From: an uncultured Oscillospiraceae bacterium
GTDB lineage: Bacteria; Bacillota; Clostridia; Oscillospirales; Oscillospiraceae
Direction: 5' to 3'
DNA: 64,000 bases
Assembly (NCBI GenBank): GCA_910588625.1
Contig: CAJUQN010000002.1
Coordinates: 60,323 to 124,322, forward strand
Position numbers and translations under genes: made by a program. Numbering within the stretch: the stretch's first letter is position 1; each line of letters begins with the position of its first letter. Under the pieces are notes generated by a model that worked only from the letters and a program-made list of their open reading frames with translations, did no database searches and had not been told where the DNA came from. Shown in pieces: positions 1-30,119 of this stretch.

Positions 1-1015
1 GCGACAGCGCCATATCCAGCAAGGGGATGGCCGCCACGGCCCCGGTGCCCTCGCCCAGGCGCATTCCCGCGGTGATGAGGGGCTTTTTGTCCAGGGCGTC
101 CAAAATCAGGCGGCCCGCCGGCTCGGCGGAGACGTGGCTTGCGAACATAGCCTTGCCCGCCTCTGGACACAGCCGCAGGGCGCACAGCGCCGCCACGGTG
201 CTGATGAAGCCGTCCATGAGCACCGGCGTTCGGTACAGCGCGCCGCCCAGGAAAATGCCGCACATCCCCGCGATGTCGAAGCCGCCCACCTTGGTCAGCG
301 CGTCCAGAGGGTCGGCGGGGTCTGGCTTGTTCAGTGCGATGGCTGTCTCGATGGCCTTGATCTTCCGCTGGAGACCCTCGTCGGACAGACCGGCCCCCCG
401 GCCAGTCATCTCCACCACCGGGCGGTCCAGCAGGACGCAGGCCACGGCGCTGGAGGTGGTGGTGTTGCCGATACCCATTTCTCCGGTGGCGATGAGCCCC
501 ACGCCCTGCTCCCTCAGATCCCGGACCAGCTCCACGCCGGTGAGGACGGCTTGCTCCGCCTGCTCCCGGTTCATGGCCGGACCCTGGGTGATGTCGCCGG
601 TGCCGTTGCCGATGCGCCTGTCCAGCACGCCGGGGATGCCGCCAGGGTCCTTCATCCCGATATCAACAGGGACCACGTTACAGCCGGCCACCTGGGCCAT
701 TTTGCACACGGAGGAACGGTTCTGCCCCGCGTTTCGGGCCACCGCCGCCGTCACGGTATAGTCGGTCTGGGTGACGCCCTGGGCCACCACGCCGTTGTCG
801 GCGCACAGCAGAATGAGGCTGCGCTTGGAGACGTCGATATTGTGGTCCAAAGTCAGCGCGGCGATGTTCTCCACCGCCGTCTCCAGCAGGCCCAGGCTGT
901 CCAAGGGCTTGGCGATGGAAGCCCACTGCCGGTGGGCGGCCTGCCGGGCCGCGTCCTCCCTGGGGTCGGGCTGAATGGATGTCAGGATGGCGTTCAGGTT
1001 TTCAAGTTTTGTCAT
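1..1015 (-). CDS. cobT: nicotinate-nucleotide--dimethylbenzimidazole phosphoribosyltransferase (3' end outside window)
   Basis: Not in the ORF track because it runs off the window. Reverse translation from the ATG at 1013-1015 gives MTKLENLNAILTSIQPDPREDAARQAAHRQWASIAKPL... and internally ATGEMGIGNTTTS, the CobT signature. The start overlaps the cbiA stop. Confidence 0.8.
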   Translation of the reverse strand, partial: MTKLENLNAILTSIQPDPREDAARQAAHRQWASIAKPLDSLGLLETAVENIAALTLDHNIDVSKRSLILLCADNGVVAQGVTQTDYTVTAAVARNAGQNRSSVCKMAQVAGCNVVPVDIGMKDPGGIPGVLDRRIGNGTGDITQGPAMNREQAEQAVLTGVELVRDLREQGVGLIATGEMGIGNTTTSSAVACVLLDRPVVEMTGRGAGLSDEGLQRKIKAIETAIALNKPDPADPLDALTKVGGFDIAGMCGIFLGGALYRTPVLMDGFISTVAALCALRLCPEAGKAMFASHVSAEPAGRLILDALDKKPLITAGMRLGEGTGAVAAIPLLDMALS

Positions 1016-2372
1016 GGCCGGACCGTTCCTTTCTGTAGCGCTCTGCCTCCCGGACGAACCGCGCCGCCATCTGGGGGCGCCCCGGGAAATATAGATGTGG
1101 GAAGGCGGCGTACAGCCGCCGGTTGGTGAAGCCGCACCGCCAGCTCCGCCCTGTCAAAGGTTTGGCGGCAGTGAGACTGTCTCCGTTTTGGGTGGAGTCC
1201 CAGTAATGAAACTCGTGGACAGGTACGGCCTCGCCCTTGCGGAAAAGGAGGCTGTCCGTGTCCGCAGTCAGCTCGGAGTAGCCAAAGCGCACCAGCTTTT
1301 GGGTGCGTATTCCATCGCCGGGCAGGTATCCCGCCATGGGGTAGAGCTGGCCGTCCGTTCCCTGGAGAGTCTGACCCAGGTAGAGAAACCCGCCGCACTC
1401 GGCCACGGTGGGCAGGCCGAGGGATACCGCCTCGTGAATGGACCGCTTCATGGATTCGTTTTCCGCCAGCCGGGCGGCGTACAGCTCCGGGTAGCCGCCG
1501 GGCAGGTACAGTCCGCAGGCATCCTCGGGCTGTTTTTCATCGTGCAGGGGGCTGAAAAACAGCAGGTCCGCGCCCGCATCCTTCAAAGCGTCCAGCGTTT
1601 CCTCATACACGAAGCAAAACGCTTCATCCCGCGCCACGGCGATGGGGACCCGGTTTTGGGCAGGAACACTGGCAACAGCCCCCCAGCCCATCCGACGGAC
1701 GCACACCTCGGACAGTTTATCCCAGTCCATGGCTGCCTCCAGCGTTTGAGCCGCACGGTCGATGCGGGCGGCGATGTCTTTGATCTCCCCAGCGGTCTGT
1801 AGGCCTAGGTGGCGGCTTTCCAAGACTGCCTCCTTTATGTGGGGGAGGCAGCCCAGCACGGGAAGCCCGGTTTCCCGCTCCAGCATGGGCTTCAGGCTTT
1901 TGAACAGCATGGGGGAGCAGTCGTTGAGGAAGACACCCGCGATGTGGCTGGGGGCCCGAAAGGCCCTCAGACCGTTGATTTGTGCCGCCAGGGTCAGGCT
2001 GGCCCCGCGGGGCCGCACCGTCAGCAGGACGGGCAGGCCCAGCGCGTCTGCCGCGTGCCAGGCGCTGGCCCGGTCGGTGGAGCCCCCCAGGCCGTCGTAA
2101 AAGCCCATAGCGCCCTCCACCACCACGGAGCTGTGGGAGGCGCCGTAATGATGGTACAAGCTCCGCGCCGTGTCCTCACTGGAGAGGAACAAGTCCAAAT
2201 TGTGGCTGTCCACCCCCAGCACGGAGCGGTGGAACATGGGGTCGATGTAGTCCGGACCGCATTTGAAGGCGCAGGGGTCCAGCCCCCGCTTTTTCAGCGC
2301 CGCCAGCAGGGCGCAGGTCAGCACCGTCTTTCCACTGCCCGAGGCAGGGGCGGTGATCATCAGCTCAAGCAT
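1002..2372 (-). CDS. cbiA: cobyrinate a,c-diamide synthase
   Basis: 456 aa. The N-terminus ITAPASGSGKTVLTCALLAAL..GPDYIDP matches the CbiA/CobB P-loop, with a C-terminal GATase-like domain. It sits in the cbi operon. Confidence 0.9.
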   Translation of the reverse strand: MLELMITAPASGSGKTVLTCALLAALKKRGLDPCAFKCGPDYIDPMFHRSVLGVDSHNLDLFLSSEDTARSLYHHYGASHSSVVVEGAMGFYDGLGGSTDRASAWHAADALGLPVLLTVRPRGASLTLAAQINGLRAFRAPSHIAGVFLNDCSPMLFKSLKPMLERETGLPVLGCLPHIKEAVLESRHLGLQTAGEIKDIAARIDRAAQTLEAAMDWDKLSEVCVRRMGWGAVASVPAQNRVPIAVARDEAFCFVYEETLDALKDAGADLLFFSPLHDEKQPEDACGLYLPGGYPELYAARLAENESMKRSIHEAVSLGLPTVAECGGFLYLGQTLQGTDGQLYPMAGYLPGDGIRTQKLVRFGYSELTADTDSLLFRKGEAVPVHEFHYWDSTQNGDSLTAAKPLTGRSWRCGFTNRRLYAAFPHLYFPGRPQMAARFVREAERYRKERSGHDKT

Positions 2373-3564
2373 GGCGCTCCCCCGTAATCAGGAAGGTAGG
2401 GTTGTTGGCCATCAGCAGGTGGAGCTTGCCCGCCGGTTTTGCCCGGCTGACGGCAATCTGGGTGACGCCGGCCTCCAGGCCGTGCTTGGTGAGCGCGGCG
2501 ATGGCGGAGGACAGGGTCTCCAGCGCGATGGCGGAGATGCAGATACGGGCGTTTTCGTTTTTGGACAGCGCCAGGTCTACGATCTGCTCCATGCCGCCTT
2601 TGGTGCCGCCGATGAAAACCGCGTCCGGAGCGGGGAGGTCCGCCAGTACCTCCGGGGCGCGGCCCTCTACCAAATGTAGATTCCAGGCGGAAAATTTCTG
2701 CTTGTTGTCGCGAATGAGGGCGCAGGCCTCCGGTTCGCATTCCACGGCGAACACCTGCCCTTCCAGCGCGGCAAGGGCCAGCTCTACGCTGACGCTTCCG
2801 GTGCCCGCGCCCACGTCCCAAAGGATGTCGGTGGGGCGCACCGCCAGCTTGGCCAGCGCGGCGGCGCGGACCTCCTGCTTGGTCATGGGTACCTGTCCTC
2901 GCAAAAATGCCTCGTCCGGGAGGCCGGGAGAGCGGCGTTCAAACCGCGGCGCGGCCTCCGCCAGCAGGACGGACAGGGCGGGGAACGTCTGTCCCGCCAA
3001 TTCCTCCGCCGTGCCAGACGTGACCTTTTCCTCCGGGTTGGACAGGTTTTCCCCCACGGTGACAGGCAGAGAGCCCAGACCGGCATTGGTCAGCCGCTGG
3101 CAAATCTCAGTGGGGCCCAGCGCCCCGCCGGTGAGGAAAAACACAGGCTTTCCCCGGCTGACCGCGCCGATAATATTGCAGTCCACCCCATGGGCGGACA
3201 CCAGCTCCCAATCCTGCCAGGGCCGCGCCAGACGGGCGGACAGCAATTGAACGCTGGAGATGCCGGGCAGGACCTGAGCGGGGATATTTTTGCCTTTTAG
3301 TAAGGGGAGCAGTCCACGGGCTCCGGAGTAAAACCCCGCGTCTCCGCTGTACAGCACGACGCAGTTCCCCTGCTGGCGGGAGATGGCGTCCAGCAGGTCC
3401 TGGGGCTTGATGGCAGCCACCCGGTTTTCGGTGCACCCCTGAGGCAGGCTTTCCAGCAGGCGCTTTGCGCCCAGGATGCAGTCAGCCTGCTGTAAAGCGC
3501 CGGCACACTCCGCCGTCATAGTTTCTGGACGGCCCCCGCCCAGAGAGGCTAAGATCACCTGCAT
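2365..3564 (-). CDS. cbiET: precorrin-6Y C5,15-methyltransferase (decarboxylating), fused CbiE/CbiT
   Basis: The N-terminal half is a tetrapyrrole methylase. The C-terminal half carries a SAM-MTase motif (ILWDVGAGTGSVSVE). The start was moved to MQVILASLGGG, which has GGGAG 8 nt upstream; the track ORF starts at 3582. Confidence 0.85.
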   Translation of the reverse strand: MQVILASLGGGRPETMTAECAGALQQADCILGAKRLLESLPQGCTENRVAAIKPQDLLDAISRQQGNCVVLYSGDAGFYSGARGLLPLLKGKNIPAQVLPGISSVQLLSARLARPWQDWELVSAHGVDCNIIGAVSRGKPVFFLTGGALGPTEICQRLTNAGLGSLPVTVGENLSNPEEKVTSGTAEELAGQTFPALSVLLAEAAPRFERRSPGLPDEAFLRGQVPMTKQEVRAAALAKLAVRPTDILWDVGAGTGSVSVELALAALEGQVFAVECEPEACALIRDNKQKFSAWNLHLVEGRAPEVLADLPAPDAVFIGGTKGGMEQIVDLALSKNENARICISAIALETLSSAIAALTKHGLEAGVTQIAVSRAKPAGKLHLLMANNPTFLITGERHA

Positions 3565-4298
3565 CCCATCATCTCCCTGCATTTGTTGAATACGGATTCA
3601 TAGTCCAACCCGTCATCCTGTGGGCGGCGGATAAGGACCAGTGTAATCCCCGTGGCGTGAGCTGCCGCGGCCTTTTCCTCAAAACCGCCGGTGCGGCCTC
3701 CGTCCTTAGTGACCAGATACCGAATATGATACTGACGGATCAGCGCCTCGTTCAGCTCCTGGGAAAAGGGACCCTGGAGGGCCAGAATGTTTCGTCCGGG
3801 CACCCCCGCCGCCTCGCAGGCGGCAAGGCTGGCGGCCAGCGGGAGCACGCGGGGATAGAGCCGTTCTCCGCCCAAAGGGGCGAATACGCCCAGCTCCTTG
3901 GCCCCGGTGGTAAGGAGGACATTTTCCTGTGTCGTTTTCAGCCATTCCGCCGCCTCAGAGGCAGAGGCGAAGAGCTTCGCGCCCTCTGGAACAGCGCTTT
4001 CCTCCCGAAGGAGCCGTAAAAGGGGCGTCCCAGCCTCCCCGCAGGCCGCGCGGATGTTTTGGCTGGCCTGGATGGCGTAGGGGTGGGTGGCGTCCACGCA
4101 CAGGTCAGCGCCCGACGCCGCTTGAGCCATCTCGGGCGGCTCCATCCGTCCGGACAGGACGGTCATCCCCGGCGCGCTCCCCTGTTCCGCCCGGCCGTAT
4201 TCGGTGGCCACGCAGACCGTGACCGACCCTCCCAGCTGGACCAGCGCATGGGACAGGCGCCGCCCCTCGGTGGTGCCGCTGAATATCACGAACTTCAT
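3555..4298 (-). CDS. cbiJ: cobalt-precorrin-6A reductase
   Basis: 247 aa, CbiJ/CobK-like (MKFVIFSGTTEGR...YLVTKDGG). Its start has an ATGA overlap with the upstream cbiH stop, and its 3' end overlaps the cbiET start. Confidence 0.85.
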   Translation of the reverse strand: MKFVIFSGTTEGRRLSHALVQLGGSVTVCVATEYGRAEQGSAPGMTVLSGRMEPPEMAQAASGADLCVDATHPYAIQASQNIRAACGEAGTPLLRLLREESAVPEGAKLFASASEAAEWLKTTQENVLLTTGAKELGVFAPLGGERLYPRVLPLAASLAACEAAGVPGRNILALQGPFSQELNEALIRQYHIRYLVTKDGGRTGGFEEKAAAAHATGITLVLIRRPQDDGLDYESVFNKCREMMGCR

Positions 4299-5041
4299 AG
4301 GTTTTGCTTCTTCTCATAGCCCCGGGGGGTTATCATCCGCCCGTGGTCCGCCTGGGTGGTGGAGGAGCCGATGAACACCGTGGAGAACATATCCAGCTGG
4401 GTGTCCCGCAGCTCGGCCAGTGTCAAAATCCTGGACTCCTCCCCCGCCCTGCCGGTGTTGCGCACGTAGCCGCACACGGTGTTCGGACTGACGCCCGCGT
4501 CCAGCAGGATATCGCACGCCTTTTGCAGATAGTCCGCCCGCTTGTGGGAGGCGGGGTTGTAGAGGACGATGGAAAAATCACCCCGAGCCCCGCAGCGCAA
4601 GCGGTTTTCAATGACCTCCCAGGGGGTGAGCAGGTCGGACAGGGAGATAACGCAGAAATCGTGCCCGATGGGCGCGCCCAGCAGGGCCCCGCCGGACAGA
4701 GCCGATGTTACGCCGGGGATTACTTCCACATCTACCTCCGGGAACTGAGGGGCCAGCTGGAGCAGGGGGCCGGCCATGCCGTAAACCCCCGCGTCCCCGC
4801 TGCACACCAGGGCCACGGTCCTGCCGCCGTCCGCCGTCTCCAGGGCCCAGCGGCACCGGTCGATCTCCCGCCGCATGGGAGTTGTGTAGGTCTCCTTATC
4901 TGGGAACAGGCTGGATACCAGGTCCACATACACCGTATAGCCGCACAACACCTGAGCGTCCTCCAAAGCGGCCTTTGCCTGGGCGGTGAAATACTTCTGA
5001 TCTCCGGGGCCAAGGCCCACCACGTATACTCGCTTTGCCAT
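4295..5041 (-). CDS. cbiH: cobalt-precorrin-3B C17-methyltransferase
   Basis: Tetrapyrrole methylase with N-terminus VYVVGLGPGD. The start was set at MAKRVYVV, which has GGAGG upstream; the longer track ORF would overlap cbiF. Confidence 0.85.
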   Translation of the reverse strand: MAKRVYVVGLGPGDQKYFTAQAKAALEDAQVLCGYTVYVDLVSSLFPDKETYTTPMRREIDRCRWALETADGGRTVALVCSGDAGVYGMAGPLLQLAPQFPEVDVEVIPGVTSALSGGALLGAPIGHDFCVISLSDLLTPWEVIENRLRCGARGDFSIVLYNPASHKRADYLQKACDILLDAGVSPNTVCGYVRNTGRAGEESRILTLAELRDTQLDMFSTVFIGSSTTQADHGRMITPRGYEKKQNL

Positions 5042-5045
5042 GGTC

Positions 5046-5822
5046 TCAACCTCCGCCGGCGGGAGAACCGGTTCCCTGCCGGTATTCCGTGGTGAATGCC
5101 GGGTCATAGAGCTTGCTGCGTTCGTAGCCCTGCCCCAAAAAGCCGCCCACCAGGATAATGGCGGTTTTCCAGATGCCCGCCGCGTCCCCGGCTGCGGCCA
5201 GATTGCCCACGGTGCAGTGGACGATCTTTTCCTCCGGCCAGGTGGCCTTATAGACGATGGCGGCGGGGGTGTCTTCGGTGTACGCGCCGCCCTTCAGCAA
5301 CGCCGCCTGGACCTGCTTCTGCATCCCCGCGGACAGAAAGATGGCCATGGACGCGCCGTGGGAGGCCAATTGCTCCAGGCTTTCCCCCTCCGGCACCGGA
5401 GTCCGCCCGGCCATGCGTGTGATGACGACGGTCTGGCTGACGCCGGGCAGGGTGTACTCCGCCCCCAGCGCCGCCGCCGCGCCGCAGAAGCTGGATACGC
5501 CTGGCGTGTCGTCCCAGGGAATATCCAACGTGTCCAGCTGGTCCATCTGCTCCCGGATGGCCCCGTAGAGGCAGGGATCGCCGGTGTGGAGGCGCACCAG
5601 GTCCAGACCCTTGGCCTGGGCGTCCTTCATCACATCCAGCACCTGCTCCAGGGTCATCTCCGCGCTGTTGTAAATGCAACAGCCCTCTTTGGCCAGTCCC
5701 AGCAGGGCCGGGTTAACCAGGCTCCCGGCGTAGATGACCACATCAGTCCGCTTCATCAGCTCCGCACCCCGCAGAGTGATGAGATCCGGGGCTCCGGGGC
5801 CCGCTCCCACGAAATGTACCAT
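5046..5822 (-). CDS. cbiF: cobalt-precorrin-4 C11-methyltransferase
   Basis: MVHFVGAGPGAPDLITLRG...LHTGDP is the CbiF/CobM family motif. The start was chosen 2 nt after the cbiL stop. Confidence 0.9.
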   Translation of the reverse strand: MVHFVGAGPGAPDLITLRGAELMKRTDVVIYAGSLVNPALLGLAKEGCCIYNSAEMTLEQVLDVMKDAQAKGLDLVRLHTGDPCLYGAIREQMDQLDTLDIPWDDTPGVSSFCGAAAALGAEYTLPGVSQTVVITRMAGRTPVPEGESLEQLASHGASMAIFLSAGMQKQVQAALLKGGAYTEDTPAAIVYKATWPEEKIVHCTVGNLAAAGDAAGIWKTAIILVGGFLGQGYERSKLYDPAFTTEYRQGTGSPAGGG

Positions 5823-5824
5823 GT

Positions 5825-6523
5825 TTATTTCTCCTTTACGATAACGGTGGCAAAATAGCCCACATTCTCCGGGCACTGGCTCAAGCCGGCGCATACCTGT
5901 TCATTGGGCAGTCCGCAATTTTCCACCAGGGCGGCGCGGTCCAGCTGGCCGGTCTTCCTCAATGCCGATACGATTTGCGGGAAGTTGTGCCCCGCTTTCA
6001 TGAGCACCTTGCCGCCGGGCTGCTCCAGCTGGGGCTCCAGCGGTTCCCGGCCCACGGGGATGACGTGGAGGGGGGAGCCCCAGCTCACCAAGGTGGTCCC
6101 CAGCCGGGACGCCGCGGCGCAAAAGCTGGGGATACCGGGCGCCATGACCGCCTCATAGCCCCGCGCCCGGACGATATCCATGATATAGCCCCAGGTGGCG
6201 TAGATGGACACGTCCCCCAGGTTGAGCATGGCCACGTCCTGCCCTGCGTCCAGATGAACCTGGATGGCGTCCACAGCCTTCTCGTGGGCGGCGCGGGTCA
6301 GGGCCTTGTCCCGTGCCATGGAAAAATACAGGGGCAGGATGGTTTTGCCATCCAAAGACACGGCTTGACGCACGATGTCCAGGGCCAGGGTCTCGCCGCT
6401 TTTCGTCTGGGGCGCGGCGATGACGGGACAGCTTTGGAGCAGGCGGACCGCCTTCAGGGTCAGCAGCTCGGGATCGCCCGGGCCCACGCCCACGCCGTAG
6501 AGGATGCCTTTTTTCATGTCCAT
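5825..6523 (-). CDS. cbiL: cobalt-precorrin-2 C20-methyltransferase
   Basis: 232 aa. LYGVGVGPGDPELLTLKA is the tetrapyrrole methylase motif, and the position in the cbi operon fits. Confidence 0.85.
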   Translation of the reverse strand: MDMKKGILYGVGVGPGDPELLTLKAVRLLQSCPVIAAPQTKSGETLALDIVRQAVSLDGKTILPLYFSMARDKALTRAAHEKAVDAIQVHLDAGQDVAMLNLGDVSIYATWGYIMDIVRARGYEAVMAPGIPSFCAAASRLGTTLVSWGSPLHVIPVGREPLEPQLEQPGGKVLMKAGHNFPQIVSALRKTGQLDRAALVENCGLPNEQVCAGLSQCPENVGYFATVIVKEK

Positions 6524-7662
6524 TGCGCTAAAATCTCCTTTGCTCTCTCGGTCTGGCCCAGCAGGCCGTATACGTTGGAAAATATCACCGCGCCGATGTC
6601 ATAGGCCCCCGCCGCCCGCCGCTCCAGGTGGAGCTGGACGGCGTCCAGCAGACTTTTCATCACAGATTCCCACAGGCCCGCGCTGTCCAGCAGCTCAATG
6701 CAGGCGTCGGTGGTGGCGGAGTCCATCAGCTTTTGACACAGTTCCCGGTCCGCGCCCCGCAGGGCCGCGTGGGTACAGAACAGCTCCGCCCGGCAGTCGG
6801 CATAGCGTGAATGGGTATTCATAATCCCTCCCGCCACCTTGACCAGCTTGCCGATGTGGCCCGCCAGAAGGACCCGCTCAAAGTGCTGGGTGGCGGCGAT
6901 GTCCAGCGCCTCCCCCAGAAAGTTGGAGCACTTCACCACCGGTATGCCTAATTCGGCCAGGCCGGTGTCTTTCAAGAAGTCCACGCCATAGTTGCCGGGG
7001 GTCAGGATGAGGTTGACCGCCCCCGCCGCCGCGGCCTGCCGCTGCTGGACCGCGATGGTATCTACAATGGCCTGCTCGCTCATGGGTTCCACGATGCCGG
7101 AGGTGCCTAGGACGGACAGCCCGCCCTTGACCCCCATCACAGGGTTGAAGGTCCGGGCGGCGGCCTCCTCCCCGCCGGGTATGGAGACGATTACCTCCAT
7201 ACCGCCGTCGTAGCCCAGCTCGTCGCAGACCTCCAGTACCTGCGCCTCGATCATCCGCCGGGGAACCCGGTTGATGGCGGCGGCCCCCACAGGCTGGTCA
7301 AGACCGGGCTTGGTTACCCGGCCCACCCCCTCGCCGCCGTCAATATGGATGCCGGGGACGACGCTTTTTTTCACCGCTGCCCGCACCAGCATCCCGTTTG
7401 TAATGTCGTAGTCGTCTCCGGCGTCCTTCTGGACGGCACAGCGGACCCAGGCCCCGCGCTCCAAAAGCTCCGCCTCCGCCAGGGGAACCGACACCTCAAT
7501 TCCCTTGGGGGTGGTCAGTGAGACGGCTTCCGGCGCGCTCCCGGTGAGCAGCAGCCGCGCCGCCCCTGCCGCCGCCAGCGCGGCACAGGTGCCGGTGGTA
7601 TATCCGCAGCGCAGCATGGACTGTCCGCTGCGCATATAGTGGGGGAATTGCTCCGAGCCCAT
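6514..7662 (-). CDS. cbiD: cobalt-precorrin-5B C1-methyltransferase
   Basis: 382 aa with the CbiD hallmark LRCGYTTGTCAALAAAGA. SD AAGGAG is upstream. It is the first gene of the minus-strand operon. Confidence 0.9.
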   Translation of the reverse strand: MGSEQFPHYMRSGQSMLRCGYTTGTCAALAAAGAARLLLTGSAPEAVSLTTPKGIEVSVPLAEAELLERGAWVRCAVQKDAGDDYDITNGMLVRAAVKKSVVPGIHIDGGEGVGRVTKPGLDQPVGAAAINRVPRRMIEAQVLEVCDELGYDGGMEVIVSIPGGEEAAARTFNPVMGVKGGLSVLGTSGIVEPMSEQAIVDTIAVQQRQAAAAGAVNLILTPGNYGVDFLKDTGLAELGIPVVKCSNFLGEALDIAATQHFERVLLAGHIGKLVKVAGGIMNTHSRYADCRAELFCTHAALRGADRELCQKLMDSATTDACIELLDSAGLWESVMKSLLDAVQLHLERRAAGAYDIGAVIFSNVYGLLGQTERAKEILAQWT

Positions 7663-7694
7663 CCACTCAGCTCCTTTTTCGTGAAATCAGCGCC

Positions 7695-7885
7695 AAAACA
7701 GGCACGACAAAGGCCCCGTCAAGGAGACGAGGCCGAACGGGACATATGATTCCGGTTTCGGCAGAAAAACGCCAACTGCCATGTATCTGACTTATCCTCT
7801 CTTAGGAGGCATCACAGTGACCGACTCGCAGGGCGTCTCACCCTATTCCATGCGCCGCCGAGGCGGCTGCAGCAGACACGATATG
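7695..7885 (-). promoter_or_regulatory. cobalamin riboswitch with intrinsic terminator, leader of cbiD operon
   Basis: The minus-strand read contains ..GGAATAGGGTGAGACGCCCTGCGAGTCGGTCACTGTGAT.. and a B12-box-like AAGTCAGATACATGGCAG. A hairpin GGCCTCGTC/GACGGGGCC followed by a T-rich tract lies at about 7695-7734. An extended -10 (TGGTAAAAT) lies at about 7888-7896. Confidence 0.7.
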
Positions 7886-8038
7886 CAATTTTACCAAGTT
7901 TGGCGATGATTAAAAATTATATCATGGGTGTTTATTCCTGTAAAGAGTGAATCCTAGGGCGACCTTTGGCAGAGCGCAAAAATAAGAGGGGGGATATGGT
8001 GATATTTTGCCTTTTGGAAGTAAAATTTTGAGGTGCTA

Positions 8039-8099: not shown

Positions 8100-8399
8100 T
8101 TCATATGGTAAAGTAGCCGCATTCCGCGCTCCGTCCAGGGGCGCGGAGAGGAAACCGGTCAGAATCCGGTACAGCTCCCGCTGCTGTGATTGCAGGAGCT
8201 TGTCGTCGAAGCATAGAGGCAGCCATTCGGGGTTCCCCGGAGAAGGCAGGACGGCAGGCGCAGGCGTTTGATCGCGCCCCAATGCATAAGTCAGAAGACA
8301 TACGGCTATGGGTGCGTCTCAGGCCGGGCGGGCCTTGAGGCGGGGTTTGATTGCACGTAAAAAACGGGGCGTGGCAGAGTTTTCTGCCGCGCTTTTTTG
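8100..8399 (+). promoter_or_regulatory. cobalamin riboswitch with intrinsic terminator
   Basis: The core AGAGGAAACCGGTCAGAATCCGGTACAGCTCCCGCTGCTGTGAT fits the GGGAA..GGTG..A.TCC..CCCGC..CTGT pattern. GCAGCCATTCGGGG..GGAGAAGGCAGG follows, with a B12-box-like AAGTCAGAAGAC at 8288-8299. A 10-bp hairpin plus TTTTTT lies at 8369-8399. Confidence 0.8.
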
Positions 8400-8627: not shown

Positions 8628-8753
8628 CGTGGCCGGCCTTTACTTTTGACAGGGAAGCCGGTATTATGATTAAAAAGGGACGGGCCCGTGACCGGGCTCC
8701 GGCGCGTCACCCCGCGGTGGTGATTCACGGGAAAATTTGTAAGGAGGCTTTTT

Positions 8754-9782
8754 ATGAGGCTGGTCATTTTTGCGTACAGCCGCCAGGGGTGTGAGACGGC
8801 CCTTCGGGTAAAGGGGGCGCTGCGCGCCCCGGCGGACGAGTGCCGCTGTTACGCCTCAGAAAAGTACGCGGGCGGAGAATTTGAGCCGATCCTTTCACCG
8901 TGCAGCCGGTTCACTGGTCCGCTGTTCGCCTGGGCGGACGCCCTGGTGTTCGTGGGAGCTGTGGGCATCGCGGTGCGGTCCATCGCGCCCTACGTGAGGG
9001 ATAAGCGGACTGACCCGGCGGTGCTCGGCGTGGACGAGCTGGGGAAGTTTGTCATCCCATTGTTATCCGGCCACATCGGCGGAGCTAACGCCTTAGCGGA
9101 ACAGCTGGCGGGAGCTTTGGGGGCCATTCCGGTGGTGACCACCGCCACGGACATCAACGGCAGATTTTCTGTGGACGCCTGGGCGGCCCGGCAGGGGCTG
9201 GCCATCACGAATATGCACGCGGCAAAAGAGGTGTCCGCTGCCATTCTGGAGCGGAACGTCCCCCTGTGCTGTGATTTTCCGATCGCGGGGGAGCTTCCCC
9301 CCGGCACGGAGCCGGGAGAGCTGGGGGATGTGGGCATCTGCATCTCCTGGCGGAAAAGGAAGCCCTTTGCCGAGACCCTTTTGCTGGTGCCCCCTGTGCT
9401 CCATCTGGGGCTGGGGTGCCGCCGGGGGGCGCCGGTGGAGCGCATCAGACAGGCGGTGGAGCAGGTGATGACCGGGCACAAAATCCACCCCAAGGCCGTG
9501 AAATGCGCCGCCTCCATTGACCTGAAAAGGGACGAGGAGGGCTTGCTGGCGTACTGCGCCGAGCGAGGGTGGCCGGTCTCATTTTATAGCGCGGACCAGT
9601 TGGCGGCGCTGGAGGGGGATTTTACGCCCTCCGAGCGTGTCCTCCGGGTGACCGGGGTGGATAACGTGTGCGAACGGGCTGCCATGGTTGGTGCTGACCG
9701 CCTGGTTGTGCGCAAAACCGCCAACAATGGCGTCACCGTAGCCTTGGCCGAGGAGCGCTGGGAGGCGCGGTTCCCCGGCTAA
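8754..9782 (+). CDS. cbiG: cobalt-precorrin-5A hydrolase
   Basis: 342 aa with CbiG N-, middle and C-terminal domain pattern (..VGIAVRSIAP..LLSGHIGGAN..HLGLGCRRG..). SD AAGGAGG is upstream. Confidence 0.85.
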   Translation: MRLVIFAYSRQGCETALRVKGALRAPADECRCYASEKYAGGEFEPILSPCSRFTGPLFAWADALVFVGAVGIAVRSIAPYVRDKRTDPAVLGVDELGKFVIPLLSGHIGGANALAEQLAGALGAIPVVTTATDINGRFSVDAWAARQGLAITNMHAAKEVSAAILERNVPLCCDFPIAGELPPGTEPGELGDVGICISWRKRKPFAETLLLVPPVLHLGLGCRRGAPVERIRQAVEQVMTGHKIHPKAVKCAASIDLKRDEEGLLAYCAERGWPVSFYSADQLAALEGDFTPSERVLRVTGVDNVCERAAMVGADRLVVRKTANNGVTVALAEERWEARFPG

Positions 9783-9804
9783 GCATTTGAAGGAGGCCGG
9801 TCCC

Positions 9805-9833
9805 TTGACAAAGGGGCCGGTGTTCGGTATAAT
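9805..9833 (+). promoter_or_regulatory. consensus sigma-70 promoter (TTGACA-17-TATAAT)
   Basis: TTGACA at 9805-9810 and TATAAT at 9828-9833. The -35 sits in the loop of a weak hairpin that follows cbiG. Confidence 0.7.
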
Positions 9834-9839
9834 GTTTTG

Positions 9840-9958
9840 CAAAGGTCGGCAGGAAGCCGGTCATGGCGCGCCGAAGCGCTCCTCCTGACCTGTGCGGTTT
9901 TAGAAACGTGTACCATGAAGGTACGCACTTCCTCCAAGGGGAAGAGCGTACCTTTTTG
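9840..9958 (+). promoter_or_regulatory. unclassified cis-regulatory leader (candidate riboswitch/attenuator) with terminator-antiterminator
   Basis: The terminator is GGTACGC-A-CTTCC...GGAAG-A-GCGTACC followed by TTTTT (9920-9958). A competing hairpin GTGTACC-atgaa-GGTACGC (9908-9926) uses the terminator's 5' arm. A structured ~65-nt region lies upstream. I found no match to a riboswitch class I can recognise. Confidence 0.5.
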
Positions 9959-10002
9959 TGCGTTTTGGGCGGGTAAAACATCTATTTTAAGGAGGAAATC
10001 CC

Positions 10003-10566
10003 ATGTCGTCTGTGAAGAAAATTACCCTGTGCGGCGTTTGTATCGCCCTGTGCGCGATTCTTCCCCCCGTGTTCCATATGGTGGGGCTGGGGAGCATTTT
10101 GTCCCCCATGCACATTCCCGTTCTGCTGTGCGGCCTGGTGTGCGGCTGGCCCTATGGGCTGTTCTGCGGCGTGGCCGGGCCGCTGGTGGCCCACCTCATC
10201 AATGGCCAGCCCGGCGCGGCTATGCTGGTGTCCATGATCCCCGAGCTGGCGGTGTATGGGCTGGCGTGCGGTCTGATGATGAAGCTGGTCCGTACCAAAA
10301 ACCTGTATGCTGATATTTACTGCTCCCTGGCGCCCGCCATGCTGGCGGGGCGCGTAGTGGGCGGCGTGGCCCGTGCCCTGTTCCTGATGGGCGGCGGCGA
10401 GTCCTATACCCTGGCTATGTGGGCGGGGGCCTATCTGGTCCAGGCCATCCCCGGCATCATTCTACACCTGATTCTGGTTCCGGCCCTGGTGGCGATGCTG
10501 GACCGGGCAAAGCTGATTCCCGCCCGCTATCCCAGCCGGAAGCTGGGGGAAGGCGCGGCGGCGTAA
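10003..10566 (+). CDS. ECF-transporter S-component-like membrane protein (ThiW/CblT-like)
   Basis: 187 aa with 5-6 predicted TM helices and a small Gly/Pro-rich pattern (PMHIPVLLCGLVCGWPYGL..) typical of ECF substrate-capture subunits. SD AAGGAGG is upstream. Confidence 0.55.
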   Translation: MSSVKKITLCGVCIALCAILPPVFHMVGLGSILSPMHIPVLLCGLVCGWPYGLFCGVAGPLVAHLINGQPGAAMLVSMIPELAVYGLACGLMMKLVRTKNLYADIYCSLAPAMLAGRVVGGVARALFLMGGGESYTLAMWAGAYLVQAIPGIILHLILVPALVAMLDRAKLIPARYPSRKLGEGAAA

Positions 10567-10608
10567 AGGCCGCGAAAAACAAAACTGCCTCAGAGGAGAG
10601 AATCCGCC

Positions 10609-11670
10609 ATGTGGGAAGATTTGCGGGAGACGCTAACCGTCCACGCCGGGAAGTACCCGGCCATGACGCCCCAGGACGGGGTGAAGCTGATCTATCAAAA
10701 TGAGTTTGGCGGCGGGCGCCTCATTGCGGACCCGGCCCAGAGCCTGGAACGCCTGCGGGCGGAGTGCGCGGCAGTCCCCCGCGCCCCCTCCGCCCCGCTG
10801 GCGGAGGACATCGGGAACGGCATGGTGCGAATCAATTTGGGCGGGCTTGACCTTGCGGAATACCCGCTGGAGGCGCTGAACCGGGATTTTGTCCGCTCGG
10901 CGGTGCTCCACCGGGGCAGCATGGACGCCTTTCTGGAAAAGTTGAACGTTTTGCGGGAGCTGGCGAAGGAAGGGGCTTTTGGGTTTTCTGCCCAGGAGCT
11001 GGAGGACTATTTGGAGCCCTGCCTGGAATCCGGCTGTCCCCCCGTCTCCCACAGCGGGGCATACCGGGCGGCCTACCGCCCCGCCTACCGTGTGGTCCTG
11101 CGGTCGGCTTGCCTGCCCCTGCTGGTGCGGGAGGTGCGGGCGCTGAGTGAAAAACAGGGCCGGGTCATCGTAGCGCTGGACGGGCGGTGTGCCTCCGGCA
11201 AAACCACCCTGGCGGCACAGTTGGAGGAGCGGCAGGGCTGGAGCGTGGTTCACATGGACCATTTTTTCCTCCGTCCCGAGCAGCGAAATCCGGAACGCTA
11301 CGCCCAGCCCGGCGGCAACATCGACCACGAGCGCTTTTTGGAGGAAGTGCTATTTCCCCTGCGACGGGGGGAGAGGCCGGTGTACCGGCCCTTTGACTGC
11401 CACACCCAAACCCTGCAAGACCCGCTTCCCTTTGCTCCCGGCCCGGTGGTGCTGGTGGAGGGCTCCTATGCCTGCCACCCCGCGTTGCGGGAATATTACG
11501 ACATGCGGGCGTTTCTCACCGTGGACCCGGCGGTCCAGATGGAGCGTATCACAGCCCGGGAGGGCGGGGCCTACGCCCAGGTGTTCCGGGAGAAGTGGAT
11601 ACCTTTAGAAGAGCGGTATTTTTCCGGCTGTGATGTGGAGGCCCAGTGCGATTACCGACTGGAAGTGTAA
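10609..11670 (+). CDS. two-domain protein: unknown N-terminal domain + uridine-kinase-like P-loop kinase
   Basis: 353 aa. The C-terminal half has Walker A DGRCASGKTTLAAQL, followed by VHMDHFF and LVEGSY, the uridine kinase/PRK-like layout. I do not recognise the N-terminal ~165 aa. Confidence 0.55.
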   Translation: MWEDLRETLTVHAGKYPAMTPQDGVKLIYQNEFGGGRLIADPAQSLERLRAECAAVPRAPSAPLAEDIGNGMVRINLGGLDLAEYPLEALNRDFVRSAVLHRGSMDAFLEKLNVLRELAKEGAFGFSAQELEDYLEPCLESGCPPVSHSGAYRAAYRPAYRVVLRSACLPLLVREVRALSEKQGRVIVALDGRCASGKTTLAAQLEERQGWSVVHMDHFFLRPEQRNPERYAQPGGNIDHERFLEEVLFPLRRGERPVYRPFDCHTQTLQDPLPFAPGPVVLVEGSYACHPALREYYDMRAFLTVDPAVQMERITAREGGAYAQVFREKWIPLEERYFSGCDVEAQCDYRLEV

Positions 11671-11708
11671 AAAAGAGCGCGCCTGCAAATCAGGCGCGCT
11701 CTTTTTTC
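11670..11708. terminator. bidirectional rho-independent terminator
   Basis: AAAA-AGAGCGCGCCTG-caaat-CAGGCGCGCTCT-TTTTT, between convergent genes. Confidence 0.8.
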
Positions 11709-12476
11709 TCACAGCGTCCGAAGCACATCCGCCACATTGGCGCAGTGGTTGGGGAAGCGTTCCTTCAAAGCCGGGTCGGCCCCCTCCATGATCCAGGGCC
11801 GTCCCGCAATGGACAGCATGGCCTCGTCGTTGAAGTTGTCCCCGAAGGCCATCACCTCGTCCAGTTCCACGCCCAGGGCGGCGCACAGCTGGGTGAGGCC
11901 CGTCCCCTTGTCCGCCAGAGTGAAATCCACCCACTCCGCTCCGGCCACCGCCACCTGGAAATGATTCTTCCAGGGCTTGGCCAGGGCCAGCCAGGTTTCC
12001 TCCAGCCGTCCGGGGCAGTAGGCGGCGATCTTGACGATGTCCTCCGGCACGTCCTCCGGCCGGGGGATCAGGGTGATATTGTTCCCCTTGCTCTCCATCA
12101 GGTCAACGATTTCCCGGTCCTTGGGACAAAGGTAGCTGGTGTTTTCCCCGGAAATAAGCACATCCACCCCCCGCAGGGCGATGATGCTCCGGCACAGCTG
12201 TTCCGCCAGGGCGCGGTCCATGACGGTCTTGTCCAGCACCGGACCGGGGTTTCCCGGACCGAACACTACCGCTCCATTCTCGCATAGGAAAGGCGCCTTG
12301 TCCGCCACAGGGGCAAACAGCTTGCGCAGACTGGTGTACTGCCTCCCGCTGGCAGGGGCGAACAGGATGCCCTTGCGCTCCAGGCGGTCGATCTCCTCAA
12401 AAATCTCGGCTGGGATATCCGACTCCCCGTAGGGAAGCAAAGTGCCGTCAATGTCGCTGGCAACAAGCCGTATCAT
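11709..12476 (-). CDS. Cof-type HAD-IIB phosphatase
   Basis: The N-terminus VASDIDGTLL is HAD motif I, and GDNFNDEAML is motif IV. It lies 15 nt downstream of the response regulator gene, so it is probably co-transcribed. Confidence 0.8.
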   Translation of the reverse strand: MIRLVASDIDGTLLPYGESDIPAEIFEEIDRLERKGILFAPASGRQYTSLRKLFAPVADKAPFLCENGAVVFGPGNPGPVLDKTVMDRALAEQLCRSIIALRGVDVLISGENTSYLCPKDREIVDLMESKGNNITLIPRPEDVPEDIVKIAAYCPGRLEETWLALAKPWKNHFQVAVAGAEWVDFTLADKGTGLTQLCAALGVELDEVMAFGDNFNDEAMLSIAGRPWIMEGADPALKERFPNHCANVADVLRTL

Positions 12477-12491
12477 GGTAATTCTCTCCTT

Positions 12492-13247
12492 TTATCTACT
12501 GGTGTCCTGGTACTCGGAGGGGGACATCCCCACCAGCTTTTTGAAGGTGGCGGAGAAATAGTTGATATCCTTGTAACCCACCTGCTCCGCCACCTCATAG
12601 ACCTTGGCCCGGCAGTCCCGTAAAAGCTCCATGGCTTTGTGGACGCGGTAGCGGGTCAGGTAATTGTTGAGGGTATAGTCCGTCTCCTTTTTGAACAGGT
12701 GGCTCAAGTGCCCCTCGCTGAGCCCCAAATGCTGGGCGATGGCCCCTACGTTGATGCCGGGGTCGTTGTAATGGGCGCCGATGTAGTCCATGGCCTCCAA
12801 CACATACTTGCTCTTGTCGCCCTTTTTCAGGCCCATGAAGAGGGAGCCGGTCCGATTCTCCTCCCTGGAAACGGGTTCCATCCGGCGGCGCAGGTTGGTG
12901 ACGGCCTGCTCCAGATCCCCGTCGTGGAAGGGCTTGAGCAGAAAGTCCACCGCCCCCAGCCGCAGGGCGGACTGGGCATACTCGAAGCTGTCGTAGGCGG
13001 TGAGGATGATGACATAGGCCCCGCACCCCCGCTCCCGCAGGCGGCGGAGCATCTCCAGCCCGTCCATTTTGGGCATTTTCAGGTCGGTGATGATGAGGGT
13101 GGGGTCATAGCGCTCCGCGGCGTCCAGGGCCTCCTCGCCGTTGGACGCCTCCCCCACCACCACGCAGTCCAGGGCGGCCCAGTCCACCGCCAGCACGATG
13201 CCTTTTCGGATCAGCTCCTCGTCCTCTACCACTAAGACCTTCAGCAT
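12492..13247 (-). CDS. two-component response regulator, REC + AraC-type HTH (YesN-like)
   Basis: MLKVLVVEDEELIRKG..ITDLKMPKMDG is the REC domain. The C-terminus has an AraC HTH (..YLTRYRVHKAMELL..VGYKDINYFSATFKK). The start was chosen at MLKV; the track ORF carries a spurious N-terminal extension into the kinase gene. Confidence 0.85.
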   Translation of the reverse strand: MLKVLVVEDEELIRKGIVLAVDWAALDCVVVGEASNGEEALDAAERYDPTLIITDLKMPKMDGLEMLRRLRERGCGAYVIILTAYDSFEYAQSALRLGAVDFLLKPFHDGDLEQAVTNLRRRMEPVSREENRTGSLFMGLKKGDKSKYVLEAMDYIGAHYNDPGINVGAIAQHLGLSEGHLSHLFKKETDYTLNNYLTRYRVHKAMELLRDCRAKVYEVAEQVGYKDINYFSATFKKLVGMSPSEYQDTSR

Positions 13248-23184: not shown

Positions 23185-24042
23185 TTACCGCGGTCCGGCG
23201 GGCCCGCACAGGAACACGCCTCGATAGCCCTTCGTCAAACGCTCCAGCGCCTCCTGGGCCCGGTTCTTTTGGTCAAACAGGCCAAACACCGACGGACCGC
23301 TCCCCGACATGGACGCCCCCAGCGCCCCGCAGTCGATGAGCGCCGCCTTGATGCTGTTGATTTCAGACAGGCGGCGGGGCTCCAAAACATCCTCAAACAC
23401 GTTGTACATCCGCCGGGCCACGCCAGTGAGGTCTCCGGCCTCCAGGGCGGCGATGACGCCGGCGGTGTCCGGACGGCGGACGATCTTTTTCACCTTCACC
23501 CGCCCGAACAGCTGGGGGGTGGAGATCGAGAAGGGCGGCTTGCAGATAACGATATGGCAGGGCGGCAGGGGGGCCAGCGGGGTGAGGACCTCTCCCCTGC
23601 TCTCGGCCAGGGCGGTGCCGCCCAGAACGCAGAAGGGCACGTCGGAGCCCACCTGCTCCCCAATTTTTGCCAGCTCAGTGGGAGACAGTCCCGCCCCCGT
23701 GAGGCGGTTCATGGCGGAGAGCACAGCGGCAGCGTCGGCGCTCCCCCCGGCCAGTCCGGCGCAGACGGGGACGTGCTTTTGAATGGACACATCCACCTCC
23801 CCCCCCAGACCGGTGGCCTGACGGAAGGCGGCGGCGGCCACCTGGGCCAGGTTCTTGCCTCCAGTGGGCAGGAAATGGAGATCGGACAGGGCCTGACCTT
23901 CCACCCCTCGGGCGGGGACGACGGTGAGGGTGTCCGCCAGCGTCACCGCTTGCATCACCATTTGCAGGTCGTGGTAGCCGTCCTCCCGCTTGCGGAGAAT
24001 GTCCAAGGTCAGGTTGATTTTTGCGTTGGCTGAAAGCTCCAT
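23185..24042 (-). CDS. ispE: 4-diphosphocytidyl-2-C-methyl-D-erythritol kinase
   Basis: N-terminus NAKINLTLDI, GHMP kinase motif PVCAGLAGGSADAAAVL. Confidence 0.9.
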   Translation of the reverse strand: MELSANAKINLTLDILRKREDGYHDLQMVMQAVTLADTLTVVPARGVEGQALSDLHFLPTGGKNLAQVAAAAFRQATGLGGEVDVSIQKHVPVCAGLAGGSADAAAVLSAMNRLTGAGLSPTELAKIGEQVGSDVPFCVLGGTALAESRGEVLTPLAPLPPCHIVICKPPFSISTPQLFGRVKVKKIVRRPDTAGVIAALEAGDLTGVARRMYNVFEDVLEPRRLSEINSIKAALIDCGALGASMSGSGPSVFGLFDQKNRAQEALERLTKGYRGVFLCGPAGPR

Positions 24043-24052
24043 AGCCGCCTCC

Positions 24053-24994
24053 TTATCTGTCTAAAAAGTCCTTGATCTCCGCCGCGATACGCGCATACTC
24101 AAAATCGTGGACGTAGTGGCCGCAGTCTAAGTAAATAATCCGCGCGTCGCTGCAGGTTTCAGCGAACCCGGCCTGAATGGCCCGCCAGTCCTCCTTGGTG
24201 AAGCCAGTGCCGCCGCTCCCGTCGGAGCAGAACAGCAGATAGGGTACGCCGGGGACGCCGCCCCGGGCCACCTGTTTGGCGTTGTCCTTGACGCACAAGG
24301 CCTCGTTTACCATGTCCTCCGTCATGGTGCGGCGGTAGAATACGGCGCGGTAGATATCCTTTTCGTCCTCCCACAGCGTCCCGTGCTGGATGGCGTCGCT
24401 TTCGGACAGTCCGGGGATCAGCCGGGTGATGCCGATGGAAGCGCCGAACTGCATCAGCCGCAGGAGGGGAGCGCTGATTTCCATCTCCTTATAGGCGGCG
24501 GGAACGGACATATCCAGGCCGATGATGGCGGACACCTCGTCCGGGTATGTTTGCGCCCAATACAGCGCCTCGATTCCCGACATGGAGTGGGGGCACAGAA
24601 CATACGGGGGCGTCAGGCCCGCTTGCGTCAGTGCTTCGCGGGTATTTTGCAGAATCGTGGCGATGTCCCGGCTCTTGCCTGTCACGTCGCTGCACCCATA
24701 GCCGAATTTCTCCACCACCGCGATCTTGCAGGTGTCAGTGAGCAGGGAATACAGGGATTTGAAGTCCAGGATGGGAGAGCAGGTGCCGCTGCCGGACATG
24801 AACACGATGGTGTCCTTGCCCTCGCCCCGAATATAGACGCTCATCTGCGCACCGTCCACCATGAGCGTCTCGCCGAGGCTGTAGTAAAGAAGGTCCTCTC
24901 TCTTGAGCTGAAACTGATGGTTAAGGGCGCATATGGCCAGGAGCAGAGCAAAGGCCCCGCCGATGGCCGCGAGGATTTTGAGCACTTTTTTCAT
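24053..24994 (-). CDS. membrane-anchored alpha/beta hydrolase
   Basis: Has an N-terminal TM helix and a nucleophile-elbow-like CPHSMSG. Its start has an ATGA overlap with the aroE stop, and ispE begins 10 nt downstream. Confidence 0.65.
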   Translation of the reverse strand: MKKVLKILAAIGGAFALLLAICALNHQFQLKREDLLYYSLGETLMVDGAQMSVYIRGEGKDTIVFMSGSGTCSPILDFKSLYSLLTDTCKIAVVEKFGYGCSDVTGKSRDIATILQNTREALTQAGLTPPYVLCPHSMSGIEALYWAQTYPDEVSAIIGLDMSVPAAYKEMEISAPLLRLMQFGASIGITRLIPGLSESDAIQHGTLWEDEKDIYRAVFYRRTMTEDMVNEALCVKDNAKQVARGGVPGVPYLLFCSDGSGGTGFTKEDWRAIQAGFAETCSDARIIYLDCGHYVHDFEYARIAAEIKDFLDR

Positions 24995-26770: not shown

Positions 26771-26784
26771 GGAGCACACCCTCT

Positions 26785-28427: not shown

Positions 28428-28445
28428 AAAAATTCCTCACAGTAT

Positions 28446-29492: not shown

Positions 29493-29507
29493 GATGGCAC
29501 TCCTTTC

Positions 29508-29539: not shown

Positions 29540-29566
29540 CGAAAAAAGAAACTTTTAGACGTTCTC

Positions 29567-30109: not shown

Positions 30110-30119
30110 CTGGTATCAC

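Follow-up and report, generated by a model that had tools for sequence, protein, structure and literature searches.

A 64,000-nucleotide stretch of contig CAJUQN010000002.1 from an uncultured Oscillospiraceae bacterium (positions 60,323 to 124,322 of the forward strand; hereafter the window) carries, directly after cbiG, a module of two genes, the first encoding an energy-coupling factor (ECF) transporter S-component and the second a P-loop kinase fused to an unrecognised N-terminal domain. A leader RNA of about 165 nt lies between the promoter of this module and its first gene. We propose, as a reading whose chances fall a little short of even, that promoter, leader and genes make up a self-contained operon for uptake and trapping, controlled by effector-dependent antitermination of transcription, with a substrate that is probably linked to the shikimate or aromatic pathway. 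Transporter-plus-kinase salvage pairs and terminator/antiterminator leaders are of kinds already known; the new elements are the RNA motif in the leader, which is absent from Rfam 15, the family of the N-terminal domain, and the association of the module with aro genes and with DUF3842. The parts of the module and its leader had been listed in an earlier note made from this sequence alone, and all parts listed there are present, at most a few bases from where they had been placed.

The leader folds with an energy of -68.8 kcal/mol (z = -4.0), which none of 200 shuffled sequences equalled. It contains three small hairpins, H1, H2 and H_AT, the last of which competes with an intrinsic (Rho-independent) terminator whose GC-rich stem directly precedes a U-tract (Table 1). 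The strong terminator that had been placed at 9920-9958 is thus present to within one base (stem 9920-9952, U-tract 9953-9957). A competing hairpin that uses the terminator 5' arm had also been proposed; H_AT is such a hairpin, but it is one of three related mini-hairpins and not the sole one. Nucleotides 9920-9926 serve both as the 3' arm of H_AT and as the outer 5' arm of the terminator, and the two folds are mutually exclusive. H_AT is not sequestered by any segment further upstream, which makes this a two-state system. The terminator state is computed at -21.8 kcal/mol, with a minimum free energy (MFE) of -25.1 kcal/mol, and the antiterminated state at -18.2 kcal/mol. Since the terminator fold is more stable by 3.6-7 kcal/mol, the default state should be termination (OFF).

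Rfam 15 was searched at the gathering threshold with the whole window, and at E <= 10 with positions 9000-12500 (3.5 kb) and 9800-10010 (211 nt). No relevant match to the leader was obtained at any of these settings, the only hits being miRNA-like hairpin noise at the terminator, which rules out identity with a known riboswitch or leader class. The E <= 10 scan of 9800-10010 agrees with the earlier statements that the leader belongs to no known class and has no B12 box, as no cobalamin riboswitch was matched there. At the gathering level, no match was found upstream of the module in 25 related loci, and the guanidine-II (mini-ykkC, RF01068) covariance model did not match the leader at E <= 10. 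The literature search likewise gave no description of this RNA motif or of an ECF-linked riboswitch candidate.

Alignment of the regions upstream of S-component homologues reveals a recurrent element, a mini-hairpin with an A-N-G-A-A or N-G-A-A loop and a C-G closing pair, referred to below as an (A)NGAA hairpin. In 34 of 43 such regions, a script detected a terminator whose 5' arm includes an (A)NGAA hairpin, accompanied by one or two upstream copies. Copy number varies from two to four per leader, linkers between the hairpins span 4-68 nt, and loops of 5 nt (ANGAA, 55 cases) are more frequent than loops of 4 nt (NGAA, 23 cases). There are two layouts: in the clade of the window, H_AT shares only its 3' arm with the terminator, whereas in Christensenellales-like metagenome-assembled genomes (MAGs), Pseudoflavonifractor and others the terminator 5' arm contains the hairpin in its entirety, and an additional (A)NGAA copy often caps the terminator. 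The family spans several clostridial lineages and one Thomasclavelia MAG.

Covariation was assessed in an alignment of 14 Oscillospiraceae leaders. The three hairpins together are 95.6% paired, and the observed covariation score was reached in none of 500 shuffles. In H1, 90.8% of cells are paired; H2 is 96.4% paired, with both sides changed in two of four pairs; and H_AT is 100% paired, again with changes on both sides. Pairing in the terminator is likewise 100%, and both partners differ in six of its pairs. A three-way covariation links alignment columns 96/106/136, which supports both of the mutually exclusive folds. Among 49 different pentaloop hairpins the loop is always A-N-G-A-A, and 47 have a C-G closing pair; the stems are variable, with as many as six types of pair at one position, although these hairpins were chosen for at least 4 bp and their inner pairs are thus paired by construction. 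No conserved junction or internal-loop nucleotides occur outside the hairpin loops, and loop position 2 is free, without co-variation between H1 and H_AT. The 1x1 mismatch in the terminator stem (9927/9945; columns 111/131 of alignment A3) is A/A, G/G or C/A in 14/14 aligned leaders, and may tune the balance with the antiterminator.

Two other readings of the leader were set aside. A three-way-junction fold of 9838-9896 is part of the MFE structure, and complementary segments can be seen by eye in several close relatives, but it is not general. The AGGAA loops resemble the GGA sites of CsrA, yet the majority of loops read AUGAA or ACGAA.

The 14 leaders were used to build a covariance model. 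Run against all related loci and the window, it finds members not included in its construction, such as L082-84 (100 bits), L081 (89.7 bits, at 39% GC) and L085 (57 bits). In L081, H1 is GAUCAAC-AUGAA-GUUGAUC, with every stem position altered and the pairing kept. All matches in the loci lie upstream of an S-component homologue or, in three relatives that lack the S-component, of the kinase gene. These three (L003, L009 and L011; about 5780-5925 in each) have a degenerate leader, with the terminator intact and loops altered, as in UACC-GAGGAGA-GUA. The model found no true second copy in the window; the only other match, at 63084-63188 (21 bits), is a terminator-like hairpin in the 5' untranslated region (UTR) of a cold-shock protein gene and not a member of the family. 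A promoter-like TTGACA precedes that gene (start 63236), and the terminator-like hairpin in its 5' UTR is GCCCGCUCUUUCGUACACGAAAGGGCGGAC, followed by U6. Most matches in a metagenome scan with CCGGCANGAAGCCGG arose by chance in GC-rich contigs from soil, L085 and L167 being the only genuine ones. In L059 (9383-9415) and L061 (8427-8465), the terminators that follow the S-component gene are long, perfect hairpins with the apical loop C-ACGAA-G, so that the loop motif recurs at the 3' end of that gene.

In the proposed mechanism, the strong promoter would start the leader, which would by default fold into the intrinsic terminator. A factor reading the (A)NGAA loops would clamp H_AT, block the terminator and allow read-through. 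Because termination is the default and H_AT needs to be stabilised by something that reads its loop, we infer an ON switch in which read-through needs a loop-recognising factor. This factor would most likely be a multivalent RNA-binding protein acting in an ANTAR-like mode, a proposal made by analogy that has a reasonable chance of being correct, though clearly less than an even one. It is favoured because the loops are not self-complementary, because only the loops are conserved and because copy number is variable. The extra hairpin copies at the terminator apex in some lineages point in the same direction.

In ANTAR targets, two small hairpins with the same loop are present, the second of which overlaps the terminator 5' arm; termination is the default, and read-through follows when a dimeric factor binds the loops (PMC8934654). 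The ANTAR loops are hexaloops with A1 and G4, and the linker is short and length-constrained, a 20-nt extension abolishing function (PMC8934654). The leader is similar in having same-loop hairpins, the last of which overlaps the terminator 5' arm. However, its loops are of 5 nt (ANGAA) or 4 nt (NGAA) and are closed by C-G, its linkers reach 68 nt from as little as 4 nt, and often three or four copies are present, so that membership in the ANTAR class is ruled out by loop size and linker length.

Two points weigh against a protein factor. No regulator gene recurs beside the module in the 84 related loci that form the neighbourhood sample (gene proximity within about 6 kb), and dedicated antiterminator proteins are often encoded beside their targets; this therefore favours a direct riboswitch. 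ANTAR was not found in the window or the loci, in a crude tblastn search with consensus sequences that constitutes a weak test. Whatever the factor, the ON logic itself is a difficulty for the proposed operon, as vitamin-type ECF S-components are mostly repressed by their end product and ON logic would be unusual for them.

In a direct riboswitch, two or three (A)NGAA hairpins would gather round a small molecule or ion and stabilise the antiterminator without a protein, the ligand being the transported substrate or its phosphorylated product. This explanation is doubtful, but it comes a close second to the protein factor. It would account for a motif that travels with one gene family across clostridial lineages and into one Thomasclavelia MAG with no conserved regulator gene nearby; the linker lengths are compatible with loop-loop association, and absence from Rfam 15 is consistent with an undescribed class. 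Very small aptamers that consist only of hairpins have a precedent in guanidine-II, which has ACGR tetraloops, forms C-G pairs between its two loops and acts on translation. The likeness to guanidine-II is confined to tandem mini-hairpins with identical conserved loops and a variable linker and to an ON switch, the latter being inferred for the leader; the (A)NGAA loop is not self-complementary, and the leader acts on a terminator and has no Rfam match to that class. Against a direct riboswitch, Watson-Crick kissing between A-N-G-A-A loops is impossible, loop position 2 is free and does not co-vary between H1 and H_AT, and there are no conserved nucleotides in junctions or internal loops from which a pocket might be built. 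Moreover, copy number ranges from two to four per leader, and the extra copies at the terminator apex cannot discriminate between the two states.

Quite improbable, in comparison, is a PyrR-like arrangement in which the kinase or its N-terminal domain would be an RNA-binding autoregulator that binds the hairpin loops when liganded. PyrR, an enzyme homologue that binds repeated hairpin loops, is a precedent. A kinase domain is encoded beside the S-component gene in every leader-bearing locus for which downstream sequence is available, and the three loci without an S-component keep a degenerate leader before the kinase gene. However, where the S-component gene is missing, the kinase gene mostly lacks such a leader, and the N-terminal domain is absent in four leader-bearing loci. 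Elsewhere that domain is fused to MerR and AraC domains, which bind DNA, as suits a ligand sensor more than an RNA binder, and the kinase model has no surface resembling an RNA-binding one, its Foldseek matches all being small-molecule kinases.

As for the module itself, the claim that it pairs an uptake gene with a kinase gene holds: the product of the first gene matches the ECF S-component family PF12822 over the whole profile, and a P-loop kinase gene follows. A ThiW/CblT-like identity had also been suggested for the 187-aa protein; its assignment as an ECF S-component stands, but a likeness to ThiW or CblT is not demonstrable, as no substrate-family model was passed. Its NCBIfam matches at E <= 1 are limited to the folT family (32 bits against a cut-off of 60) and ThiT (17 bits against 108), both below their cut-offs. 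No ThiW- or CblT-named model is among these matches, although the presence of a CblT model in that release was not checked. The best sequence match in the PDB is RibU, at E = 0.45, and the 4,232 homologues of the S-component are named only 'ECF transporter S component'. An S-component homologue is adjacent to the kinase gene in 42 of 80 genome loci.

The kinase half of the second gene product is a small-molecule kinase of the uridine kinase/phosphoribulokinase (PRK) type, with a Walker A motif, an Asp motif and a structural match. The motifs GRCASGKTT and HMDHFF are invariant in 14 homologues. The earlier reading of this part as a uridine-kinase-like P-loop kinase is upheld, for residues ~170-350, by a PDB match to 3w8r (5.9e-8) and by a Foldseek match to 3asz (E 8.5e-10, probability 1.00, target-normalised TM 0.66-0.70). 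It is not, however, an ordinary uridine kinase, as had also been anticipated: the udk equivalog models are missed by a wide margin (TIGR00235, 21.9 bits against 220; PRK05480, 23.4 against 180), the best equivalog is PRK06547 at 58 bits against 173, and all models score 22-58 bits against cut-offs of 173-236. SKI (PF01202) is not among the Pfam or NCBIfam matches. Relative to the uridine-cytidine kinase/PRK family (PF00485; 3asz, 1ufq), the protein preserves the P-loop fold, the Walker A motif and an MDHFF segment that aligns, as HMDHFF, to PMDHYY of the Thermus thermophilus uridine kinase, but it is only 17-24% identical, lies far below the equivalog cut-offs and has an extra N-terminal domain of 168 aa.

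That the N-terminal domain is unrecognised, as had been stated for a segment of ~165 aa, agrees with our searches. Residues 1-168 have no match in Pfam (searched with 14 members), NCBIfam or PDB profiles, and when the AlphaFold2 (AF2) model of the domain, which has a pLDDT of 93.4, was compared with the PDB by Foldseek, no neighbour was found below E = 1.8; assignment to a known fold was therefore rejected. Nonetheless, the family is large, with 3,456 clusters at E <= 1e-3 in a hidden Markov model (HMM) search of 1.84 billion representative proteins. Many members are stand-alone proteins of about 170 aa, found on contigs that are too short for informative gene context. Others are fused to GNAT acetyltransferases, S-adenosylmethionine (SAM) methyltransferases, an alpha/beta hydrolase, the catalytic domain of O6-methylguanine methyltransferase (MGMT), a MerR helix-turn-helix (HTH) domain (including proteins with the order MerR, N-terminal domain, kinase), a response regulator with an AraC HTH domain, and an ion-transport domain. 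The motifs YQNEFGxGH and SHSxxYRxxYxPAYR are kept across all of these fusions. In L027, L028, L033 and L037, the same leader and S-component are found with a kinase-only gene. From this architecture, namely the kinase-only genes in four loci and the varied fusion partners, the domain is best viewed as an accessory ligand-binding or specificity module, and a role as an obligatory second enzyme is unlikely. The S-component would dock on the shared ECF module and import a small molecule, and the kinase would phosphorylate the imported compound and so trap it; the N-terminal domain would contribute ligand binding or specificity, not a second catalytic step.

The nature of the imported compound can be approached through gene neighbourhood. 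The earlier note had proposed, by analogy with CblT/CblS, that the module salvages alpha-ribazole or another riboside of a cobamide lower ligand, with the kinase as a non-orthologous replacement of CblS. Within the window this has some appeal: the module adjoins cbiG, a cbi operon and a cobalamin riboswitch lie within 2 kb, and a ribose-type kinase fold would suit a riboside substrate. Among the related loci, L008 has a cobalamin riboswitch 2.5 kb away, and L081 has a CobA/BtuR-type adenosyltransferase gene 1 kb downstream. However, tblastn with the CbiG and CbiD sequences of the window detected homologues near the module in 0/84 loci, including the closest relatives at 71-79% kinase identity, and the predicted enrichment of the pair near cob genes is thus lacking. 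The L008 riboswitch is the only one in 25 loci scanned with Rfam, which by our estimate is about the chance rate for riboswitch-rich Clostridia, and it is on the opposite strand. In the window, the riboswitch (8108-8320, 64.7 bits) lies upstream of cbiG, and the module, with its own promoter and a leader that is not a cobalamin riboswitch, is outside the transcript that it controls. Taken with the S-component, which matches no ThiW or CblT model, the neighbourhood result leaves this salvage route close to refuted and extremely improbable, and the substrate would not be a B12 lower ligand. Since cob-gene enrichment failed, the B12 label for the module should be dropped.

Some features of the B12 genes in the window were recorded in passing. 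The riboswitch and a terminator-like hairpin (8366-8395) lie ~360 nt before the cbiG start at 8754, with a weak promoter-like site (8639-8667) between the hairpin and the start. The divergent cbiD...cbiA operon, which occupies 1002-7662 on the minus strand, is served by a strong promoter at 7944-7916 (11/12, with TG) and has a 5' UTR of ~250 nt with a terminator-like hairpin at 7734-7712; its leader (7662-7944, minus strand) has no Rfam match at E <= 1, and no recognisable B12 riboswitch.

Shikimate-pathway genes, on the other hand, occur within 6 kb of the module in 15 of the 84 loci, in four arrangements. The first has a convergent GHMP-kinase-aroE-pheA operon (L001, L002, L003, L005, L028, L033). 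In the second, an aro operon, DUF3842, the leader, the S-component gene and the kinase gene follow one another on one strand (L022, L081), and in the third the leader, S-component and kinase are followed on the same strand by aroF-tyrA-aroB-aroA-aroC (L038, L040, L042, L047). The fourth has aroK-aroA-aroC, chorismate mutase and aminotransferase genes and then the kinase gene (L031, L046, L053). A random 12-kb locus would overlap an aro operon in roughly 1% of cases by our estimate, and the association therefore looks real. The substrate is thus probably connected with the shikimate or aromatic pathway, and shikimate itself would, tentatively and by analogy, be the simplest candidate, in a salvage branch with a dedicated second kinase.

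This assignment has difficulties of its own. About 80% of loci have no aro gene within 6 kb, and the 15 positive loci fall in roughly four lineages, which makes their statistical weight modest. The neighbouring aro operons already encode canonical shikimate kinases (SKI in L031 and L081, a GHMP kinase in the window), so that the module could provide at most a second, salvage-type kinase; the possibility that the fused kinase is the missing shikimate kinase of these operons was discarded for the same reason. The kinase is nearer to uridine kinase and PRK than to the shikimate-kinase family. Transporters of the ECF type mostly handle trace nutrients, whereas shikimate would be a bulk precursor. 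No relevant report of an ECF shikimate transporter was found in the literature.

The aro operon of the window is at 23185-33920, with HAD-phosphatase, two-component-system and ABC-transporter genes between it and the module. This operon includes the GHMP-family kinase gene at 23185-24042 (minus strand), as do those of L001, L002, L003, L005, L028 and L033, and no SKI-type gene was seen; we take this kinase to resemble the archaeal-type shikimate kinase. The neighbouring gene (24053-24994) has a weak alpha/beta-hydrolase match.

The second recurrent neighbour is DUF3842, a gene for which adjoins the kinase or S-component gene in 14 of the 84 loci (L010, L022, L029, L041, L050, L052, L057, L059, L061, L075, L076, L079, L080 and L081). 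The protein is ~130 aa long, with the motif IDAQGGGLGK; it has no relative in NCBIfam or the PDB, and no informative literature on it was found. A literature search for DUF3816 gave nothing relevant. In the Pseudoflavonifractor/Vermiculatibacterium group (L041, L050, L054, L059, L061), the kinase gene and the leader-S-component unit are separated by a gene for a maltose/galactoside-type O-acetyltransferase (about 7035-7694 in L061). Two of these loci also have a PNP_UDP_1 nucleoside phosphorylase gene nearby; in L061 it immediately follows the S-component gene, and in L041 it is at a distance of ~4 kb. Matches to malK-I RNA a few kb from the kinase gene in L007 (6216-6393, 128 bits) and L009 (9987-10174, 123 bits) are probably unrelated to the module.

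The coordinates of the features are collected in Table 1. As had been claimed, the module has a promoter of its own directly after cbiG; it is separate from cbiG and lies just 3' of its stop codon. Promoter-like sites in the region number 6, against 1.4 expected, and a TTGACA ... TAnAAT pair is found at the equivalent place in related leaders. The spacer between the -35 and -10 boxes (9811-9828) holds a conserved GC-rich inverted repeat, GCCGGTGTTCGGT, which abuts the -10 box. Matching inverted repeats, CCGGTTTCCGGT, are present in L001, L005, L008, L012, L018, L020 and L037, and the repeat is absent from more distant leaders. This repeat could be an operator for a DNA-binding regulator, in addition to the RNA switch. 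The two genes are separated by 42 nt, and each is preceded by a Shine-Dalgarno sequence. Rfam leader models matched the hairpin downstream of gene 2 as terminator-like on both strands.

Table 1. Position of the module, its leader and its immediate neighbours in the window
Feature	Position	Strand	Description
cbiG	8754-9782		Domains CbiG_N, CbiG_mid, CbiG_C (Pfam)
Sigma-70 promoter	9805-9833	+	-35 TTGACA 9805-9810, 17-nt spacer, -10 TATAAT 9828-9833; 12/12 consensus
Hairpin H1	9844-9862	+	GGUCGGC-AGGAA-GCCGGUC; 7 bp; ANGAA pentaloop closed by C-G; -6.6 kcal/mol
Hairpin H2	9868-9879	+	GCGC-CGAA-GCGC; NGAA tetraloop variant closed by C-G
Antiterminator hairpin H_AT	9908-9926	+	GUGUACC-AUGAA-GGUACGC; 7 bp; -8.7 kcal/mol
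Intrinsic terminator	9920-9957	+	Stem 9920-9952 (7 bp, 1x1 mismatch, 7 bp), then UUUUU 9953-9957; -20.8 kcal/mol
Shine-Dalgarno of gene 1	9989-9995	+	AAGGAGG; read from sequence
Gene 1, ECF transporter S-component	10003-10566	+	187 aa; PF12822 51.8 bits against cut-off 30.7, profile positions 1-169 of 169
Gene 2, complete	10609-11670	+	353 aa
Gene 2, N-terminal domain	10609-11112	+	aa 1-168; mostly helical; motifs YQNEFGGGH, SHSxxYRxxYxPAYR
Gene 2, P-loop kinase domain	11113-11670	+	aa 169-353 and stop codon; Walker A GRCASGKTT aa 192-200; HMDHFF motif
Bidirectional terminator hairpin	11671-11708	.	Common to gene 2 and the convergent HAD-phosphatase gene
HAD-phosphatase gene	11709-12476	-	Convergent with gene 2

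The CblT/CblS, ThiW/ThiM and PnuC/NadR pairs also place a vitamin-type uptake gene beside a small-molecule kinase gene whose product would trap the import, and the fusions P0279 and P0323, in which MerR, the N-terminal domain and the kinase are joined, recall the HTH-enzyme-kinase layout of NadR. The present module differs from these pairs in that its S-component is in no defined substrate family, its kinase carries a novel N-terminal domain, it is linked to aro and not to cob, thi or nad genes, and it would follow ON logic instead of end-product repression. In Escherichia coli, ShiA and AroL provide shikimate salvage with a transporter and a second shikimate kinase. The proposed model is similar in that an intermediate would be imported and then acted on by a dedicated extra kinase beside the housekeeping one (L031, L081 and the window). 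However, the transporter is of the ECF and not the major facilitator superfamily (MFS) type and the kinase is uridine-kinase-like and not SKI, and the analogy is drawn from gene neighbourhood. A more far-reaching combination is conceivable, though on balance unlikely: the leader would be a new riboswitch class of two or three (A)NGAA mini-hairpins that senses a shikimate-pathway or diet-derived hydroaromatic compound and induces a hitherto unrecorded ECF-type uptake, and the N-terminal domain would be a new and widespread small-molecule-sensing fold that also drives MerR/AraC regulators, acetyl- and methyltransferases and an ion channel.

The case also advises caution over annotation by adjacency, given that a cbiG neighbour in one genome would suggest a B12 function that comparative data do not support. 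The leader is compact, easily testable and widespread in Clostridia of the gut, cultured strains of Pseudoflavonifractor and Vermiculatibacterium among them, and discovery of its effector would reveal a ligand new to riboswitches or else an RNA-binding antiterminator family of a new kind. The present data tie together the S-component, DUF3842 and the 168-aa domain, whose relatives number in the thousands but which lacks a structural neighbour; each thereby gains an experimental handle, and all three may tentatively be linked to the metabolism of aromatic compounds.

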